From the NCBI GenBank assembly GCA_000004695.1, contig CM000155.2:928001-992000 (forward strand): 64,000 bases of DNA, written 5' to 3'. The stretch comes from Dictyostelium discoideum (taxonomy: Eukaryota). Position 1 is the first letter of the stretch; each line of letters opens with the position of its first letter. The notes under the pieces were generated by a model. That model did not search any database. It was not told where the DNA came from and worked only from the letters and a program-made list of their open reading frames with translations. A program made the position numbers and the translations under genes. Shown here piece by piece: positions 7,133 through 49,828 of the stretch.

Positions 7133-8330
7133 TTATAACAATGGTTGAGAATCTAATGAATTATCATCTTCATCATAATAATAATTATTATTATTTGTTT
7201 TTGTTGTAATTGTTTTAGATTTTTTATATTTAAAAAATTTAACATAAATAAACATTGAGATACAAAATATAAATAAAAGACCAATTACTGAAACCATGAT
7301 TGAGACTGGTATTTTCCATTTTGAAGAATCTGGATTATCTACACAACTTACATCACCATTATCTGAAATGAATAAATGAGTTTTTTCATTTAAACAAACA
7401 CAATTATCATCTTGACCATCATTTTTGCAATCAGCTGAACCACACATTGTAGAATTTGCACATTCACCTTCTTTTTGACAGTATTTAATAATTTCATTAT
7501 CAATTTTTTTATTTTGTAAAGTGAAACCTTCATCACAATAACAATAATAAAGTATGTTATAATCAATTCCATTCTCTATAAAGTGATTTGTAGTTAAATT
7601 ACATTTTGCATAACCACAATCTATTTGAAAATTTTTAATATAACATGTATCAATTTCACATTGCGTACCATTGAATTTATAACCTTCTTTACAAGTACAA
7701 TTATAACCTTTTACTATATTATCAGTATTTTCACATTCTCCATTCCCACCACATACATTTAAATAACAATAATCTTTATCTATTTAAAAATAAATATAAA
7801 ATAAAATAAAATAAGTTTTTAAAATAAAATAATAAAATAATAATTAAATAATTTAATAATAAAAATACTTACATTGACATAAGGTACCATAAAAACCCAA
7901 TGGACATATATCACTACCATAATCCCATGTAAAAACATTAATTGAACCATTCAAACAATTAAATGATGTTGTTGCTGAAGTATGATTTAATTGTATTGAA
8001 GTTGAATTGAAGATTGTGGTTGTTGTGATTAAATTTGGTGAATTATTTAGTGAACAAGTGAAAATATTTAAAAAATGATTTTCATTTGTAAATGATAAAA
8101 TCATTGAATTAAATTCAATTGAATTTTCACCACAATTACCAATTTGATAGAATTGAATTGAATTATCTTGTTTTAATTTACATGAACCCAATGTTAAACT
8201 TTTTTTGAAAATTTTTTGATATCCCCATGATAAAGTAATCCAATCAATTGGGCATGGGGAATATATTTTTGAGTTTCCATAAATTTGATTATATTCATAA
8301 AAATTTTTATTTTTATTTAAACCCTTTTGG

Positions 8331-20053: not shown

Positions 20054-20810
20054 TTAATTTGAATTTGATCTTGATCTTGATCTTGATCTTTCTCTTGATC
20101 TTCCATTACCATTTGCATTATTACCAGAGTCAGCAGAAGCAGCATCGCCAGCTGCAATTCTTTCTTTAGAGAGTGAAGAATCTCTCTTTTTTTCTTTTTT
20201 TAGAGATCTTGAACGATCTCTTGAACGATCTCTACTTCTATCTCTTGAACGATCTCTTCTACTACTATAACGACTACCACCACCATTTGATCTTGAACGA
20301 TCTCTACTTCTATCTCTACTATTATTTCTTCTTCTATCTCTACTAGTGTCTCTTATTATATTACCACCATCTCTTGAACGATCTCTACTTCTATCTCTAG
20401 AACGATCTCTTGAGGTATCTCTATTTCTTCTGGCATCTCTTGATCTATCTCTACTTCTATCTCTTGATCTTTCTCTTCTACCATCTCTTGATCTATCTCT
20501 ACTTCTGTCTCTACGATCTCTTCTTCTATCTCTTCTATCTCTAGAACGATCTCTAGAACGGTCTCTTGAACGATCTCTAGAACGATCCCTTGATCTATCT
20601 CTACGATCCCATGATGGTGATCTATATCTTCTTGATCTTCTATCTCTTGAATGTGAACGACTTAGGGATCTATCTCTTGATCTTTTCTTTCCACCATTTG
20701 GACAACTTTTTATCCAATGACCTTCTTGACCACATGCAAAACATTTATTATTATCAGCTATTTATTTTTTTTTTTTTTTTTCACAGTAATAATAAAATAA
20801 AAAATCAGTA

Positions 20811-20898
<88 letters not shown>

Positions 20899-20900
20899 GT

Positions 20901-20932
<32 letters not shown>

Positions 20933-21762
20933 ATTTTAAATTTTATAAAAAAAATAGCAAATATAGGTTTAAGAATGGACACAAAAGAAGCAAAAACATA
21001 AAGAAAAAGATGAATTATGTTGAATGGCATATAGCAATTAGCAATAAATAACACAAACGGTGGAGAGGTGGGAAAGGATGAAGTGAGCACAAAGGAAGGA
21101 AAAAGAGTGAAAAAGGGAAAAGGAGAGAGTGAGACACACAAGACACAAGGTGACTAATGATAATTAATTATCAAATAGTAGTGGATGAGCCATCATGAAT
21201 GAAATGAATGCCTAAAATGACCAATCTTGGGGGTTTTTTTTTTTTTTTTTTTTCTTTTGAAATTAACCAAAAAATTGTAAAAAAAAAAAAAAAAAAAAAA
21301 AAGGTTCTGGCTCTGCTTAATGACCCATTGGAATGATCGGAGAATTAAGAGGCAACTTTTTTTTTTTTTTTTTTTTTTCTGGGCTTTTTTTCTTGGAAAA
21401 AAAAAAAACGGATCTGAAGCGTGATTTAACCGACAAAAATGGAAACGGGAATTCTTAATTTTTTAATTTTTTAATTTTTTTTCCCCTCTTTTTAAAAATA
21501 AAAAAATAAAAAAATTACCTAGAAAAGCAAGGCAAGTAGCAAACTTCTAGGGGGGGCATGAAATAAATTTAGTCAACAGCAAAACATGTCTGTCCCACAA
21601 ACAAAATTTTTTTTTTTTTTTTCCTTTTTTTTTTTTTTTTTTTTTTTTTTCTAAAAACAAAGTGTGGTGGGGTGGGGTGATTTTTTTTTTTTTTTTTTTC
21701 CCAATGAAAAATACAAAAATATTGAGATTTTTATAATTTGAAAAAGAGAGAAAAAGAGAGAG

Positions 21763-21798
<36 letters not shown>

Positions 21799-22082
21799 GA
21801 TGCAGATTGTTAATATAAAGAAAAATAATAAAAAAATAAAAACTTACCATTTTTACCACCTTTTGCCCATTCAACTGAAATTTTACTATTTAATAAGGTT
21901 GTACCATTTAATGCTTTTAAAGCATCATCTGCATCTCTTCTTTCTTTATATTCAACGAAAGCATAACATCTTCCGTTTGTTTTCTTTACATCATTTCTAG
22001 TAATTGTACCATATTTTGAAAAATGGTCATTTAAATTTTTTTGGGTGGTTTCGACTGATAATCTACCTATGTATAATGACAT
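20054..22082 (-). CDS. SR splicing factor, SRSF7/9G8-like (RRM + CCHC zinc knuckle + RS/RD domain); join(21848..22082,20054..20757) on the minus strand; 312 aa
   Basis: Exon 1 (ORF 21810..22082) is an RRM, with RNP2 LYIGRL and RNP1 RCYAFVEY. It ends KNG + g | GTAAGT. Exon 2 has no Met and is therefore absent from the ORF track. It begins (g)ct = A, then DNNKCFACGQEGHWIKSCPNGGKK (C-x2-C-x4-H-x4-C knuckle), followed by ~200 aa of RSRDRS repeats, and ends ...RSRSRSNSN*. Every codon of exon 2 was translated explicitly and is in phase (235 nt + 704 nt). The intron is 1,089 nt. Confidence 0.8.
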
Positions 22083-22188: not shown

Positions 22189-22883
22189 AAAATAAAGCCC
22201 GCACTAATATATAAGAATTTTTTTTTATTTTTTTTTTTTTTTTAATGTATATCCACAAAAAGTTGTTTTTTTATTTTATTTTTTATAAATTATTTTATTA
22301 ATTATTTACAATTATATTACAATGTCAATTTAATTCGTTTTTTTTTTTTTTTTTCTGTTTATTTTTTATTTTTTATTTTTTAATATATCTTGTTATGCTA
22401 TTTTAGAGGTGTGTGGGTGAGTGGAAAAAAAAAAAAAAAAAAAAATAAAAAAATTTATAAAAAAAAATGAAAAAAAAAAAAATAAAAAAGAAAAAAAAAA
22501 GAAAAAAATAAAAAAAAAAAAAAAAAAAAGAAAAAAAAATTAAAAAAAATTTTAAAAAAAAAAAAAAAAAAAAAAAAATCAAACAAAAATGATGTTTTAA
22601 TTATTTGTTATTTTATTTATTTACTTTTATTATTATTATAATTATAATTAGAAACAATTGTAATTGTATAATTTATTTTAATTTTTTTTTTTTTTTTTTT
22701 CATATTTTTTAATTATTTTATTTTATTTTTTTTTTAAAATTTTTTTTTTCAATCGAACGAAGAAATTTTTTTGATATATTTATTTTTTTTTAAATTTTTT
22801 TTTTCTTTTTCAAAACAAATGATTAAAAATAAAAATAAAAAATAAAAAAATATAAAAAATAAAAAAAAATAAAAAATAAATAA

Positions 22884-45029: not shown

Positions 45030-47716
45030 GTAGTAGTAGTATTGGTATTAGTATTATTAACATTATTTTCAGTAGTTTGAGTAGTTTGTGGTGTTGATAC
45101 AATAACATTTAATTTTGAAGAGGAATTAGTATGTTGAATTGGTTGATTAACTTTAAGAGTACTTGAAGAATTATTTGAAGTAACAAGTGGGTCATGTGTT
45201 ATTGGTTTTAATTCTGGTAAAACTATAGATTCACTTGATTGAGTTGGTGATATTGATCCTTTTGAAGTTGAAGTTGTTGTTGTTGAGGGTATATCTAAAT
45301 TTGTACGAGATTGCATTGGTGAATTTGAAGCTGATGATGACGATGATGAATGTTTATGTTTTTCAACTTTTGCTGGTGAAACATTTGGTGAATTTTGAAT
45401 ATATGATTTACAAAAATCTAATAATGAACTATTACCTGCATTTGATTTTGAAAGCATTGGTGGTCCTGGTGTTAATGTTGAATTTGATGTTGAATTTGAT
45501 GTTGAGGTAGATGTTGAGGTAGATGTTGAGGTAGATGTTGAGGTTGATGTTGAGGTTGATGTTGAGGTTGATGCTGAGGTTGATGTTGATGTTTCAATAA
45601 AAGAAGAAGATGGTGAAGTAGATTTTAAAGAATTTTCTTTATTATATGCAGTATGTGTGGCAATAAAAGATTTATGATTAGTTTGAGGTGGTTGAGGTGG
45701 TTGAGGTGGTTGTTGTAGAGGTTGTTGTAGAGGTTGAAGTTGAGGTTGTTGAGGTTGTTGAGGTTGAGGTTGTGATAATAAAGGTGGTGAAGGATTAACA
45801 GTATTTAATATAACAGGAGTGTTATCAATTTGAATACTTGATAAACCATTAATAATTGGCATATCAGGATTTGAATCATTAATAGAAGAAGAATTATCTT
45901 CACCCTCACTATCAGAGGAAACGTCAGCTAAACTTGCACCATCAGTAAGTGTACCAAATGGTGCTGTTGCTGTTGCTGTTGTTGCTGTAAAGGTTGATGT
46001 AGGTGTAGATAAATTATTACTACTACTAACATTATTTTCATTTGATCTTGAAGAACTAATTGATAAATAATTGTAACAAGTTTTACAAACTCTTGCATCT
46101 TTTTTATATTGATCTAAAGTCCATTTTTGTTCTGAACATTTACCACATACAACATTACCACATCTTCTACAATGATGTCTTCTTCTAATGGTTGTAAATT
46201 TAATAGTACACTCCATACATTGAATTGCTTCGCTATCAGGTATCCAAACTGGTGCTGTTGATACTGTTTCCTCTTCTTTTGGTTTTAAAATATTAATACC
46301 TAATAAATAATAAAAAAATTAAAAGTTAATAATAATAATATATTTTTAAAAATAATATGATATATTTTAATTAAAATAACTACTTCTATATTGTTTATTC
46401 ATTCTTGCAACAGAACCTTCATTACGTAATAAAAAGTTTTGAGCATCACTAAATGAATTCATCCAACTTGATTTTTCTTGTTCAGTATCTGCAATCAATG
46501 TAAATGATTTAATTGGATGAATAAGTTGAAATGAATTTTTATGTTCTAAAAAATAATGAGGTTAATAAATTTAAATAAATGAATTGATAATAAAATAATA
46601 AAAAAAAAAAAAGAAGTGTTAGGGTTGTTTTTTTTTTTTTTTTTTTTTTTTTGTGTGTCTGTTTTTAAAAAATAAAATAAAAAAACTTACTTGTATCATC
46701 TAAATTTGCAATTTTTGTATTTGATAAAGGTAAAAGACGATGAAATTTATAGATTGGATTACCAACAGCAGTATCTATACGATTACCATAAACTAAAGCA
46801 TCACTAAATAAGATGAACCAACGTTTTTTATGATCTTTTCTACAAACTTTAGTTAGAGAACCTTCACGAATAAAAGTACGTAGTGGAGCCAATAATGGTG
46901 GACATTGACCAGTGAAACGTTTTTGAATTGTTAAAATCTTTTCAGAGTTTTGTTTTTCACGAATACTCTCATTGATATGATCGGCGACCAATGCAACGTT
47001 TTCCAATGCTTTTGCCAATGTTGGATAATCACTAAATTCGACCGGTGTCAATTGAATTAAACTTTGTAATAAAAGTTTATACCTTGGAATACGTTGAATC
47101 GGTGTAACCAACAATGAATTCAAATCTAAACCAAACGAATTCTCACTGGTAACTCGTTTAAGAAACATTTGTAAATCTCTACTTTCGTCGGATTTTTGCT
47201 TCAATCTGGCCACTGCTTTATCATAGTTACCACAATACTCTGTATACACTTTCAAATAAGGTGCCATCTTTGTAAATATATCTCCTAAACGTTTATCTTG
47301 ATACCATGTCGTCATTCTATCTTGAATCGACGTCAATAACTCTGTATTCAATGATAATAAATCTTCAATATGTCCAAATATAATTTGAATTGATTTTGGT
47401 GATAATAATGGTGGGTTTATATTTCTTAATGGTTTTAAATAAAACTAAATAAAATAAAAAAATTAAAATATAAAATAAATATTTTTTTTTGACTTTTTTT
47501 TTTTTTTTTTTTATAATAATAAAATAATAATTATTTTTTTTTATACTTTACTTGTACAATGGTTTCTAAATTTCTAACATAAATTTGTTCAGTATCTAAA
47601 ATTTCTTTTGCAACTTTATCTCTATTGGTTTTATTAACCATCATAGTTTTATATCTTTTTCTACCAATCCATGCTTTTATTGTGCTACCTAATATTTCTT
47701 TATTTTTTGTGTCCAT
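44420..47716 (-). CDS. FYVE, RhoGEF (DH) and PH domain-containing protein (FGD-like); join(47552..47716,46691..47444,46384..46545,44420..46299) on the minus strand; ~986 aa
   Basis: DH domain: ...RDKVAKEILDTEQIYVRNLETIVQ | ...LVTPIQRIPRYKLLLQSLIQ. PH domain: GSLTKVCRKDHKKRWFILFSDALVYG...EKSSWMNSFSDA. FYVE finger: WIPDSEAIQCMECTIKFTTIRRRHHCRRCGNVVCGKCS...CKTCY. The rest is a long S/T/P/Q-rich tail with PPQPNL and poly-Asn repeats. Donors are GTAAAG, GTAAGT and one non-consensus GTAGTT; the phases of all four exons agree with ORF-track frames. A further 5' exon cannot be excluded. Confidence 0.7.
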
Positions 47717-49828
47717 TTTGGTTTTTTTTTTTTTTTTTACTTTTTTTTAATTTTATTAAAAGTTTAATAATTCCAATCAAACAATTAATTAAAGTAATAT
47801 CTTTTTTTTTTGTTTTTTTTTTTTTAAATTTTAATTGGACTTAAAAAATTAAAAAATTGCAAATTTATTTTTTTTTTTTTTTTTTGAAAAAGTAAAAAAA
47901 AAAAGAAATGGTGGGTGGGGGGGGGTTATATATTTGACAATTTGACGAGTTGTTTAAAAGGTTTTATTTTTTTTTTTGGTTTTAATTTTAACCTTTTTTT
48001 TTTTCTTAATTCCTTTTGGGCGGGTATATATATAAAGGGAAGAAATTTTGTTAAAAGAAGGAGGGGTATTTTTTTTTTTAATTTTTTTTTTTTTAATAAA
48101 GGGGGTTTTTTGGGAAAAAAAAAAAAAAAAAAAAAATAGTTGGGTAGAAAAAAAAAAAAATTTAAAATAAAAAAAAAAAATTTAAATTAAAAAAAAATAA
48201 AAAAAAAAAGAAAAAAAGATATTTAAATTTGGATGGGCTGTTAACGGTGTTTTTTTTTTATTAATAAAAATCATAATAAAAAAAAAAAAAACAAAAAAAA
48301 ACAAAAAAAATAAAATTTAAATAAATAATGGAAAAAGAAACATTAATTTAAAATTTTAAATCAATCATATAATCTTATCATTTTTTTTTTTTTTTATTCT
48401 ATTTAAAGAATTATTTTCAAAAAAAAAAAAAATAATAATAATAAATAAAATTTAATAAATCTCGTTATTTTTAGTTTACCAAAAACATTTTTTTTTACCA
48501 CAAATCTTTTTTATTTTTTTATTTTTTATTTTTTTTTATTTTGGAAATAAATTAACCTCTTCTCATCCATAAAAATCATTTATTATTGTTGTTTTTACAT
48601 TTATTTCCTATTTTTACATTTATTTTTATTTTTTTATTTTATTTGTATTTATTTTTTTATTTTTTATTTTAAAAAGAATTTGTAAAAAAAAAATAAAATA
48701 ATAACCCATAACGAAATATCCTTTTCAAATATTTCTTTTATTAAATTTGAGGTAAAATGTAAATAAATAAAGAATTAAGATTGATAATTACAGTTCATTA
48801 TACTTTTTTTTTTTATGAGCGGGGTCATCCTCTTTCTTCAAGACCTAAATCAAGATCTGGCAAATAATTAATTTATATCTAAAAAAAAAAAAAGATTTTA
48901 TAAATAAAAATATAAAAATGATCATGTGATCATTAATTCACTCCCACAAAGTGTCTATTTTAATATTTATTTGTATTATTTCTCTAATTACTTTGATGTA
49001 TTGTCTCTTAAAATTTCAAAGTGGGGTGAGTATCATTAATGTCATCACTAGAATTGGTACAAGTTAACCCACAATTTCAATTAATTATCATTGAGGGAGG
49101 GGTAATAAAGAAGTTAATTCATTGAATAAGAGGGGTGATTTTATTAATAATTTCAAAGAGTATTAGTATAGATTAAAATCGGGAATGATTTCATTGCGAT
49201 TTTTGTAATAATTTATTTAATTACTTAATTTATTAAATTTGTACTTCAAATATTATCAAAATTAGTAAAACAAGTTTTTAAAATGAATAAAAAATAACCA
49301 TACATTCCCCAAGTAAGTTTGATTAAAATTATGTTTATAACTTTTTAAATATCTTACCTTAACTAATTTGGTGATTTTTTTTTTTTTTTAATTTGAAAAT
49401 TCCCAAAATTGGGATTTTCAAACAAATCTTGAAATTCAAAGTAAAATTTTGTGTATTTTTGAGTTATATTTATCTGTATAAAATCCATTTTAATAAAAAA
49501 TAAAAATTTTTTTTTTTTTTTTTTCCAATTATCAGACTTAATGTAAACTGTATTAATATTAATAAATATTTTTTAATACTTTAATCTTTTTTTTTTTTTT
49601 TATTGTTTAAATTTATTTTTATCTTTTTTTTTTTATTTTTATTCTTTTTTTTTTTTTTTATTTTATTTTTTTTTTTTTAATTATTTTTTTATTTATTTAT
49701 TTTGAAAATAAAATTACCTCTTCTACATTCATAAAAAACATTTACATTTATTATTGTTATTATTATTTATTATTATTAATAATTATTATTATTATTATTA
49801 ATTTAATTTTTTTTTTTTTTTTTTTTTT

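Follow-up and report, generated by a model that had tools for sequence, protein, structure and literature searches.

Across animals, plants and fungi, SR splicing factors steady their own levels by diverting pre-mRNA to unproductive forms, and whether this circuit is ancestral or was reinvented is an open question (PMC4379411). Unproductive splicing of SR genes is widespread, and the fungal SRSF5 orthologue uses plain intron retention for it (Lareau & Brenner 2015, PMC4379411). In plant SR genes, one long intron (400-1100 nt) is conserved, undergoes alternative splicing and is autoregulated (Kalyna et al. 2006, PMC1636356). Furthermore, in a class of human exons, extended AG-exclusion zones have been described as a mark of distant branch points and of regulated splicing (Gooding et al. 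2006, PMC1431707). In an EST survey, no alternative splicing was observed for the SR genes of Dictyostelium discoideum, of which two were listed, perhaps not including the gene described here (PMC3173450).

The gene that is the subject of this study lies on the minus strand of a 64,000-nt stretch of D. discoideum DNA (the window) and contains an intron of unusual length. The position and size of this intron and its pyrimidine-rich core are kept across dictyostelids, which suggests that the level of the gene is under self-control by splicing; we give the reading of the intron as splicing-regulatory, for unproductive splicing or retention, about an even chance. We know of no examination of the SR autoregulation circuit in Amoebozoa. 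A long intron that keeps its position and its strand-specific composition throughout Dictyostelia offers a concrete place to test the ancestry of the circuit. Dictyostelium is genetically tractable, and its introns are otherwise tiny. The locus would also give convenient access to the question of how a spliceosome used to short introns copes with one that is long, pyrimidine-rich and depleted in AG. Should the intron prove to be constitutive, the finding shrinks to a correct gene model and an odd intron.

The SR gene and its protein

The gene consists of two exons on the minus strand. Exon 1 (21848..22082, 235 nt) contains the start codon and the RRM in 78 codons plus 1 nt, the long intron (20758..21847, minus strand, 1090 nt, phase 1) runs from GTAAGT to ATAG, and exon 2 (20054..20757, minus strand, 704 nt) encodes a CCHC zinc knuckle and an RS/RD tail before the stop codon TAA (20056..20054). 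Joined in frame, the exons comprise 939 nt and encode 312 aa plus the stop. This splice had been proposed in an earlier note made from the sequence, and both the in-frame product and the comparison with other species agree with it: because five orthologues are interrupted at the same codon and in the same phase, the exon junction is independently supported. The earlier observation that exon 2 lacks methionine and is missed by ORF finding was also correct, as its translation is Met-free and no ORF of at least 30 aa in this frame appears in the ORF list.

Pfam searches identified an N-terminal RRM_1 domain (residues 3-68, E = 2e-17) and a zf-CCHC domain (residues 82-99, E = 5e-6) with the spacing CX2CX4HX4C. 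The single knuckle, CFACGQEGHWIKSC, is situated between the RRM and the RS domain, which is the SRSF7/9G8 - RSZ arrangement. The tail, put at about 200 aa of RS/RD repeats in the earlier note, comprises 212 aa, of which 38% are R, 22% S and 16% D, with 63 RS/SR and 55 RD/DR dipeptides; RS alternates with RD in many RDRS repeats. SR proteins are reportedly defined, after Manley & Krainer, by an N-terminal RRM together with a C-terminal RS domain that spans 50 aa or more and has an RS content above 40%. By this definition the C-terminal tail is an RS domain, since R and S make up 66% of aa 103-265 and RS/SR dipeptides cover 52% of the residues there.

The protein is SRSF7/9G8-like in its domain architecture. 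By sequence, however, its RRM scored nearer to SRSF6 RRM1 (1.9e-11), PfSR1 (3.7e-11) and SRSF1 RRM1 (~1e-9) than to SRSF7 (2e-7) or SRSF3 (3.6e-7) in a phmmer search of the PDB, a ranking by search score. In published work, a D. discoideum SR gene that bears a knuckle grouped weakly with RS2Z (PMC3173450).

A long intron at one position in dictyostelids

Orthologues were located by synteny, through the neighbouring tafazzin gene; a direct protein search had yielded no match above 50% identity and no dictyostelid among its matches. Syntenic orthologues lie beside tafazzin in D. firmibasis, D. purpureum, P. violaceum, T. lacteum and C. fasciculata, and their models match the annotated product lengths in T. 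lacteum (276 aa), D. firmibasis (320 aa) and D. purpureum (297 aa). Exon 1 is 93% identical to that of D. firmibasis at the DNA level and 98.7% identical at the protein level. The SR gene was not found next to tafazzin in Acytostelium, and the contigs that carry P0017 differ in the upstream neighbour and contributed no further lineage.

An intron interrupts all five orthologues at the identical codon, in phase 1, with lengths of 1064, 1082, 783, 529 and 943 nt in the five species. Other introns of the T. lacteum gene measure only 102 and 87 nt. Within the window, credible introns, taken as low-GC, frame-consistent candidates, span 73-186 nt, the upper value being that of the neighbouring tafazzin intron, against 1090 nt for the SR intron. 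The earlier estimate that it is 8-10 times longer than typical was therefore roughly right, the measured ratio being about 6-10.

The composition of the intron is as unusual as its length. Its GC content is 22.5%, compared with 6.5-8.4% in confirmed neighbouring non-coding DNA, each piece of which holds at most one GC island. Windows with at least 30% GC make up 52% of the intron (21018-21237, 21288-21467, 21508-21607 and 21638-21707), in agreement with the GC-normal islands listed in the earlier note, and the homopolymer runs described between them are present. The motif GGGGTGGGGTG was also found where expected in kind, at 21669-21679 instead of 21665. It is the plus-strand form of a C-rich box, TCACCCCACCCCACCACAC (21662..21680, minus strand), that is retained in D. 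firmibasis with an indel; the enclosing block B1 (21655-21685, 31 nt) is 77% identical to D. firmibasis, approximately the neutral rate. An (ATT)n microsatellite at ~20811-20899, absent in D. firmibasis and specific to D. discoideum, is probably filler.

Constrained blocks, pyrimidine core and AG-free zone

Identity between D. discoideum and D. firmibasis at 4-fold sites (76%) was used as the neutral yardstick. Conservation above this level is limited to the 96-nt block B5 and two short cores. Block B5 (21140..21235, minus strand), located just upstream of the pyrimidine core, is the only island that is clearly constrained, with 90 of 96 positions identical (94%, binomial P = 4.8e-6). It contains a perfect 16-bp palindrome, TGATAATTAATTATCA, made of two inverted GATA sites, and the two D. 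firmibasis differences within it are symmetric, so that the palindrome is preserved. The core TTGTCGGTTAAATCACGCTTCAGATCCG (21409..21436, minus strand) lies in a 48-nt block (21403-21450) in which 37 of 40 aligned bases are identical in D. firmibasis. A 26-mer, TTGCTACTTGCCTTGCTTTTCTAG|GT (21517..21542, minus strand), matches D. firmibasis at 26/26 positions and consists of a pyrimidine tract and a YAG acceptor-like site abutting GT, which makes it a candidate alternative 3' splice site or recursive site. A donor role for this GT is doubtful because GTAATT in D. discoideum corresponds to GTTATC in D. firmibasis.

For most islands, the CU-rich one among them, identity between these two species is no higher than at neutral sites. 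The conservation of islands in other Dictyostelium species about which the earlier note had asked holds for B5 and the two short cores relative to D. firmibasis and for nothing alignable beyond it. With nhmmer, none of seven intron blocks found a match in five 20-kb loci. When the masked introns of D. discoideum and D. firmibasis were compared with whole loci by blastn, the best matches were scattered AT-rich noise, not the orthologous intron. Only (CT)n k-mers are shared across lineages, with similar results in controls, and no other 8-mer occurs in at least four of the five. Motif enrichment in the introns was confined to CU repeats and a weak YCCACCR word, unconvincing after multiple testing. 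Conservation beyond D. firmibasis is architectural only, residing in position, length class and composition.

Such a pattern is in part what would be expected if the intron had expanded without function, its length being a historical accident and its GC-normal content a decaying insert: most islands show no excess of identity over neutral sites, nothing aligns past D. firmibasis, and the (ATT)n array is lineage-specific. However, an intron of 0.5-1.1 kb persists at the same codon in five lineages in which introns measure ~100 nt, strand-specific composition is kept in all of them, B5 is significantly constrained, and a search for repeat copies of the intron elsewhere in the window found none. 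We consider such an accident improbable.

A GC island in the non-coding DNA of Dictyostelium is often the mark of an ncRNA gene, and the earlier note had raised an intron-hosted snoRNA or other ncRNA. The constraint on B5 and one DUSE-like element, TCCCACAA, at 21593 on the plus strand would fit a stable intron-derived RNA (snoRNA, class I-like or other) on either strand. However, Rfam searches of the locus (E-value mode) and of the whole window (gathering mode) returned nothing, or poly-A/poly-T hairpin artefacts, with nothing real under either type of threshold, and a tRNA search found none. Dictyostelium class I RNAs are characterized by a DUSE ~60 nt upstream, the 11-mer CCUUACAGCAA and a terminal stem; the intron holds no match to the 11-mer within two mismatches, and DUSEs in the window number 7, below the 10.4 expected by chance; neither motif was counted more often than chance predicts. 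Box C/D RNAs were defined by a C box (RUGAUGA) and a D box (CUGA) 40-200 nt apart with a terminal stem, and H/ACA RNAs by a double hairpin with H and ACA boxes. No C-box/D-box pair is present on either strand of the D. discoideum intron, an exact C box occurs in none of the six introns, and folding of four islands, B5 among them, on both strands gave z scores of -1.2 to +1.5, no better than shuffles. Furthermore, a conserved rRNA guide would need a shared 8-mer, and none other than (CT)n is found in at least four of five lineages. An RNA product of the intron is accordingly very unlikely.

The constrained pieces might instead act as DNA. In the AT-rich Dictyostelium genome, regulatory DNA usually takes the form of GC-containing boxes, and the GC-normal blocks could be DNA binding sites within an enhancer or an alternative promoter that serves either the SR gene or its divergent neighbour, tafazzin. 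In line with this, the constrained pieces are short and modular, the symmetric changes in the B5 palindrome point to a dimeric DNA-binding protein more than to an RNA hairpin, and the CACCC-type box at 21662-21680 resembles the sole GC island of the promoter spacer (~22405-22421). Transcriptional control is nevertheless an unlikely explanation of the intron. It leaves the strand-specific excess of C over G in the core of six species unexplained, and it accounts neither for the depletion of AG up to the acceptor nor for a long intron at a fixed coding position.

This core (21060..21159, minus strand) is rich in C and poor in G on the gene strand (37% C, 8% G, 83% C+T). In 6/6 species, a 100-nt core lies 52-78% of the way along the intron, and its gene strand is 30-47% C, 8-13% G and 74-83% pyrimidine. 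Its sequence is not conserved, with 64% identity to D. firmibasis, under the neutral rate. Because the composition is shared though nothing aligns beyond D. firmibasis, any function would be carried by composition or degenerate sites, a kind of constraint that may be expected of a platform for splicing-factor binding.

A zone free of AG dinucleotides (20760..21153, minus strand, 394 nt) extends up to the AG of the 3' splice site (20759..20758). Approximately 6 AGs are expected from composition, and this length was reached in 9 of 2000 local shuffles. AG-free zones also run to the acceptor in D. firmibasis (263 nt), T. lacteum (209 nt) and C. fasciculata (233 nt), making 4/6 species; in the remaining two, D. 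purpureum and P. violaceum, which represent two of the five lineages, the AG-free run over the core (232 and 126 nt, respectively) stops at an upstream AG. In D. purpureum an upstream acceptor, ...ccaacacAG|, is predicted ~110 nt ahead of the annotated one. The D. discoideum zone is partly a by-product of low G content and was spotted post hoc. It resembles the human AG-exclusion exons in that a long pyrimidine-rich AG-free stretch (209-394 nt, 4/6 species) abuts a used acceptor, and differs from them in that it is partly due to low G and is broken in D. purpureum and P. violaceum (Gooding et al. 2006, PMC1431707).

An intron of this kind could also be constitutive and only mechanically special, with a distant branch point or recursive removal at AG|GT (21519|21518) and no regulation, its features serving just the excision of an intron ten times as large as normal. 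Long AG-exclusion zones accompany distant branch points (PMC1431707), zones of 209-394 nt are present in 4/6 species, and the acceptor and donor are juxtaposed in TTTTCTAG|GTAATT, which is identical at 26/26 positions in D. firmibasis up to the GT. However, in D. firmibasis the donor half of this motif has decayed to GTTATC, the other species contain AGGT roughly as often as chance predicts, and an ordinary branch-point-like CTGAT lies ~47 nt from the acceptor in D. discoideum. Special mechanics would also leave unexplained the origin of the length and its persistence across Dictyostelia, and we regard them as an improbable account of the intron. The same features may be joined with regulation: autoregulation might operate through the pyrimidine-rich tract of 200-400 nt that lacks AG, removal being made rate-limiting and sensitive to SR level by a distant branch point or by stepwise AG|GT splicing. 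We offer this combination tentatively, as possible though doubtful; if true, it would make dictyostelids the first Amoebozoa in which unproductive splicing of an SR gene is known.

Truncating products and the known SR circuits

Any inclusion of intron sequence introduces a premature stop. Every sense frame of all six introns contains 7-21 stops, and read-through into the intron halts after 2-72 codons across the six species, 12 in D. discoideum (a 90-aa ORF). The earlier note had left room for additional coding exons inside 20758..21847; no hidden coding exon is present there, as stops occur throughout and a six-frame search of the intron for peptide conservation found none. An internal donor scan identified no conserved GTAAGT-class donor, the sole D. 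discoideum candidate being GTAATT at 21518. With no good conserved donor inside the intron, nothing supports a cassette poison exon; this picture fits T. lacteum and P. violaceum only, and loosely. Nor do the islands establish the poison exon that the earlier note had suggested, most of them being no more alike between D. discoideum and D. firmibasis than neutral sites. The donors used constitutively are strong (GTAAGT or GTATGT), unlike those of many regulated retained introns.

The earlier proposal of a regulatory intron finds support in two results: wherever a syntenic orthologue exists, in all five lineages, position, length class and a strand-specific pyrimidine core have been kept, and some islands are constrained relative to D. 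firmibasis. Its poison-exon version is unsupported, and its snoRNA version very unlikely. Alternative processing of the intron, the unproductivity of that processing and its drive by the SR protein itself are what we infer. In the productive event, 21848 is joined to 20757, giving the RRM-knuckle-RS protein. The intron, kept long with a pyrimidine-rich, AG-depleted core and a few constrained blocks, would be removed in a tunable manner; abundant SR protein or a partner factor might lead to its retention or to use of an internal acceptor, for which the conserved TTTTCTAG| at 21519 is one candidate and a site at 21651 another. Either outcome would bring a stop soon after the RRM, following 12 intron codons in the case of full retention, and the unproductive mRNA might be degraded by NMD, stay in the nucleus or give rise to a stub that has only the RRM. 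The net result would be homeostatic feedback like that of plant and animal SR genes.

For splicing regulation of this type, the fungal SRSF5 orthologue, with retention and without a cassette exon, is the variant that best fits the dictyostelid data (PMC4379411). The poison exons of animal SRSF3 and SRSF7 are similar in being non-coding segments between the RNA-binding and RS parts that truncate the protein if kept, and the domain order of SRSF7 (RRM, one CCHC, RS) is that of the D. discoideum protein (PMC4379411). However, the animal exons are ultraconserved and have their own splice sites, whereas the intron described here has one 96-nt block constrained relative to D. firmibasis and no conserved internal donor, and the RRMs of SRSF7 and SRSF3 score lower against the D. 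discoideum RRM than do SRSF6 and SRSF1 RRM1.

The regulated introns of plant SR genes (RS2Z/atRSZ33, RS and SCL) likewise reside in an SR host, and RS2Z also combines an RRM, CCHC knuckles and an RS domain (PMC1636356). They measure 400-1100 nt where less than 150 nt is the norm, compared with 529-1090 nt against ~100 nt in dictyostelids, and in both groups position and phase are deeply conserved, most of the sequence is not, and any inclusion leads to a premature stop. The alternative sites of plants lie in highly conserved sequence and are backed by ESTs and overexpression, whereas the candidate sites in D. discoideum are unconserved beyond D. firmibasis. Plant RS2Z has two knuckles and the D. 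discoideum protein one. Finally, the plant intron splits the RRM between RNP2 and RNP1, whereas the dictyostelid intron follows the whole RRM (...VEWAKGGKN) and precedes the knuckle; T. lacteum has an intron just before RNP1, and it measures only 87 nt.

Gene model and conserved position of the intron

The minus-strand SR gene consists of an RRM-coding exon of 235 nt (ATG at 22082, end AATG/GTAAGT at 21848/21847) and a 704-nt exon running from 20757, after ...AAATAG/, to the TAA at 20056..20054. Spliced, the two exons are in frame and encode 312 aa with RRM_1 (2e-17) and zf-CCHC (5e-6) domains in Pfam, a knuckle of sequence CFACGQEGHWIKSC, and a tail of 38% R, 22% S and 16% D that contains 63 RS/SR and 55 RD/DR dipeptides. 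The translation of exon 2 contains no Met and its frame is missing from the ORF list, as had been pointed out in the earlier note. The domain order is that of SRSF7, but in RRM scoring SRSF6 and SRSF1 RRM1 were nearer than SRSF7.

A protein database search with the SR protein returned no match above 50% identity and no dictyostelid, the best match (P0001) being an intron-less gene on a metagenome contig of 43% GC. Therefore, the conserved tafazzin gene, which lies head-to-head with the SR gene (start 22884, + strand, 186-nt intron), was taken as an anchor. A first search found Tieghemostelium lacteum, and a profile search added Dictyostelium firmibasis (88% identity), D. purpureum (71%), Polysphondylium violaceum, Acytostelium subglobosum and Cavenderia fasciculata. 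The SR orthologue is the divergent upstream neighbour of tafazzin in five of these six loci; synteny of the head-to-head pair is kept in D. firmibasis, D. purpureum, P. violaceum, T. lacteum and C. fasciculata and broken in A. subglobosum. An ArgJ-family gene lies close 3' of tafazzin in the first four of these species. The annotated dictyostelid SR orthologues had been missed by the protein search despite many exact words in common with the query, and the locus tables list no Pfam record for them, though the RRM is clear.

At the protein level, the RRM exon shares 98.7% identity with that of D. firmibasis, and the same codon and phase are interrupted in all five orthologues (...GGT AAA NNN G/GTAWGT ... 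YAG/YNG ATA AYA A...), by introns of 1064 nt in D. firmibasis, 1082 in D. purpureum, 783 in P. violaceum, 529 in T. lacteum and 943 in C. fasciculata. The T. lacteum model built here equals the annotated 276 aa, and by coordinate arithmetic the two-exon models match the annotated lengths exactly in D. firmibasis (320 aa) and D. purpureum (297 aa). Because the orthologues agree in codon and phase and the models give the annotated lengths, the 21848/20757 junction proposed earlier is independently supported. No further constitutive coding exon is needed within the intron, since the species agree in the linker between RRM and knuckle. The T. lacteum orthologue has two more short introns within the RRM, at 9670-9569 (102 nt) and 9466-9380 (87 nt) of locus L002, both missing from D. 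discoideum; the second immediately precedes RNP1, where plant RS2Z genes have their long regulated intron.

Composition and constraint within the intron

Because credible introns elsewhere in the window measure 73-186 nt, the SR intron (21847..20758) is ~6-10 times the typical length. Its GC content is 22.5%, and 52% of it falls within islands of at least 30% GC (21018-21237, 21288-21467, 21508-21607 and 21638-21707), compared with 6.5% GC in the tafazzin intron and 8.4% in the intergenic spacer, non-coding neighbours with at most one island. The earlier description of a long intron with GC-normal islands was accurate, and the G-run that it placed at 21665 is present at 21669-21679. An (ATT)n microsatellite of ~30 units, at about 20811-20899 inside the intron, has no counterpart in the D. 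firmibasis intron.

Exons of D. discoideum and D. firmibasis are 91-93% identical, and the AT-rich spacer aligns at ~75%, which low complexity inflates; four-fold degenerate sites (76% identical, n = 130) were used as a neutral proxy. Only the block at 21140-21235 is significantly constrained against this proxy (90/96 identical, P = 4.8e-6). Two cores are also conserved in D. firmibasis, TTGCTACTTGCCTTGCTTTTCTAG/GT at 21542-21517 (26/26 identical) and TTGTCGGTT..CACGCTTCAGATCCG at 21436-21409, with 37 matches among the 40 aligned positions of its enclosing block. Identity does not exceed neutral in the C-rich box, the island at 21293-21356, the CU-rich tract (64%) or the 3' part (29%).

Beyond D. 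firmibasis, nhmmer searches with seven blocks against five loci gave no match, the best blastn matches of the masked intron to whole loci were scattered AT-rich noise, and the only k-mers common across lineages were (CT)n; a weak YCCACCR word present in every lineage is unconvincing after multiple testing. Each of the six introns nevertheless has a 100-nt core (21060-21159 in D. discoideum) of 30-47% C, 8-13% G and 74-83% pyrimidine on the gene strand, located 52-78% along the intron. Across these lineages, it is architecture that stays common, not alignable sequence.

It is possible that the constrained blocks are regulatory DNA. The block at 21140-21235 holds a perfect 16-nt palindrome, TGATAATTAATTATCA (about 21161-21176), equal to two inverted GATA sites, which reads TGATAACTAGTTATCA in D. 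firmibasis (L003, about 8251-8266); the two substitutions are placed symmetrically and leave the palindrome intact. Furthermore, the CACCC-type intron box resembles the sole island of the promoter spacer. That island, the C-rich box CCACTCACCCACACACC (about 22405-22421, SR gene strand), is the only one in the 800-nt SR-tafazzin spacer, and the windows around it show 80-88% identity to D. firmibasis; its resemblance to the intron box TCACCCCACCCCACCACAC (21662-21680) may reflect a shared promoter or regulatory element.

The AG-free zone and a splicing-regulatory reading

In D. discoideum, no AG occurs from 21153 to the acceptor AG at 20759-20758, a distance of 394 nt in which ~6 AGs are expected from composition; this length, to which the (ATT)n array contributes a part, was reached by 9 of 2000 local shuffles. 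Equivalent zones span 263 nt in D. firmibasis, 209 nt in T. lacteum and 233 nt in C. fasciculata. The AG-free run over the pyrimidine core is 232 nt in D. purpureum and 126 nt in P. violaceum, where it stops at an AG that precedes the annotated acceptor; in D. purpureum, a textbook pyrimidine tract leads up to this AG (...ttgtccctctctccaacacAG/). The D. purpureum site, ...ttgtcttgttttgtccctctctccaacacAG/ (L004, about 8145), directly after the pyrimidine core and ~110 nt before the annotated acceptor, is strongly acceptor-like. It is thus a concrete candidate for an alternative 3' splice site, the use of which would extend exon 2 by ~110 nt with an early in-frame stop. Fisher combination of five independent shuffle fractions gave roughly P = 0.002 in a post hoc test, with the zone partly due to low G content. 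In human genes, a long AG-exclusion zone is an accepted sign of distant branch points and regulated exons (PMC1431707). The AG-free zone and the strand-specific composition jointly point to a function in the sense pre-mRNA.

The most economical reading of these sequence features, given about an even chance, is that of a splicing-regulatory intron in a splicing-factor gene. The intron would be kept long, with a pyrimidine-rich, AG-depleted platform and a conserved acceptor-like core, and therefore its removal would be tunable. Read-through reaches a stop 12 codons into the intron, and any inclusion brings a premature stop; thus, retention or use of an internal acceptor would place a stop just after the RRM. 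On this reading, such alternative processing would occur, would be unproductive, and would be controlled by the protein itself. Of the earlier proposal, a regulatory role is probable in view of conservation, composition and the AG-free zone, but the poison exon as such is not borne out: no GTAAGT-class internal donor is conserved, and the sole candidate in D. discoideum (GTAATT at 21518) corresponds to GTTATC in D. firmibasis.

The same logic is found in plant SR genes, in which one long intron (400-1100 nt), conserved in position, is alternatively spliced with premature stops, that of atRSZ33 being autoregulated (PMC1636356), and in the poison exons of animal and the plain intron retention of fungal SR genes (PMC4379411); Amoebozoa are outside the scope of both studies. 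Because the plant intron lies between RNP2 and RNP1, whereas the dictyostelid intron follows the RRM, homology is not claimed. In an EST survey, alternative splicing was not seen in two listed D. discoideum SR genes (PMC3173450).

Other candidate explanations and ncRNA signals

ALTERNATIVES tested for the intron were ncRNA, a mobile element, a hidden exon, a cassette poison exon and regulatory DNA. An intronic ncRNA, including the snoRNA suggested earlier, is not supported: Rfam gave nothing real at the SR locus or in the whole window, no C-box/D-box pair occurs on either strand, no exact C box is present in the six introns, the class I 11-mer has no occurrence in the SR intron, and folding of four islands on both strands gave z-scores of -1.2 to +1.5. 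For a mobile element, no second copy occurs in the window; for a hidden exon, six-frame peptide conservation is absent and each sense frame contains 7-21 stops.

No tRNAs were found, and DUSE-like octamers numbered 7 against 10.4 expected. Matches to the conserved 11-mer of Dictyostelium class I RNAs in the window are at chance level in number; CTTTACAGCAA, at 45982-45992 (-), is one mismatch from it. At 48704-49140 (+), Rfam at the gathering threshold and the tRNA scan gave no match. Within 400 nt, this stretch has three DUSE-like octamers (48704, 48942 and 49067), next to GC islands in non-coding DNA (48781-48870 and 48981-49140), and may represent a small ncRNA gene cluster.
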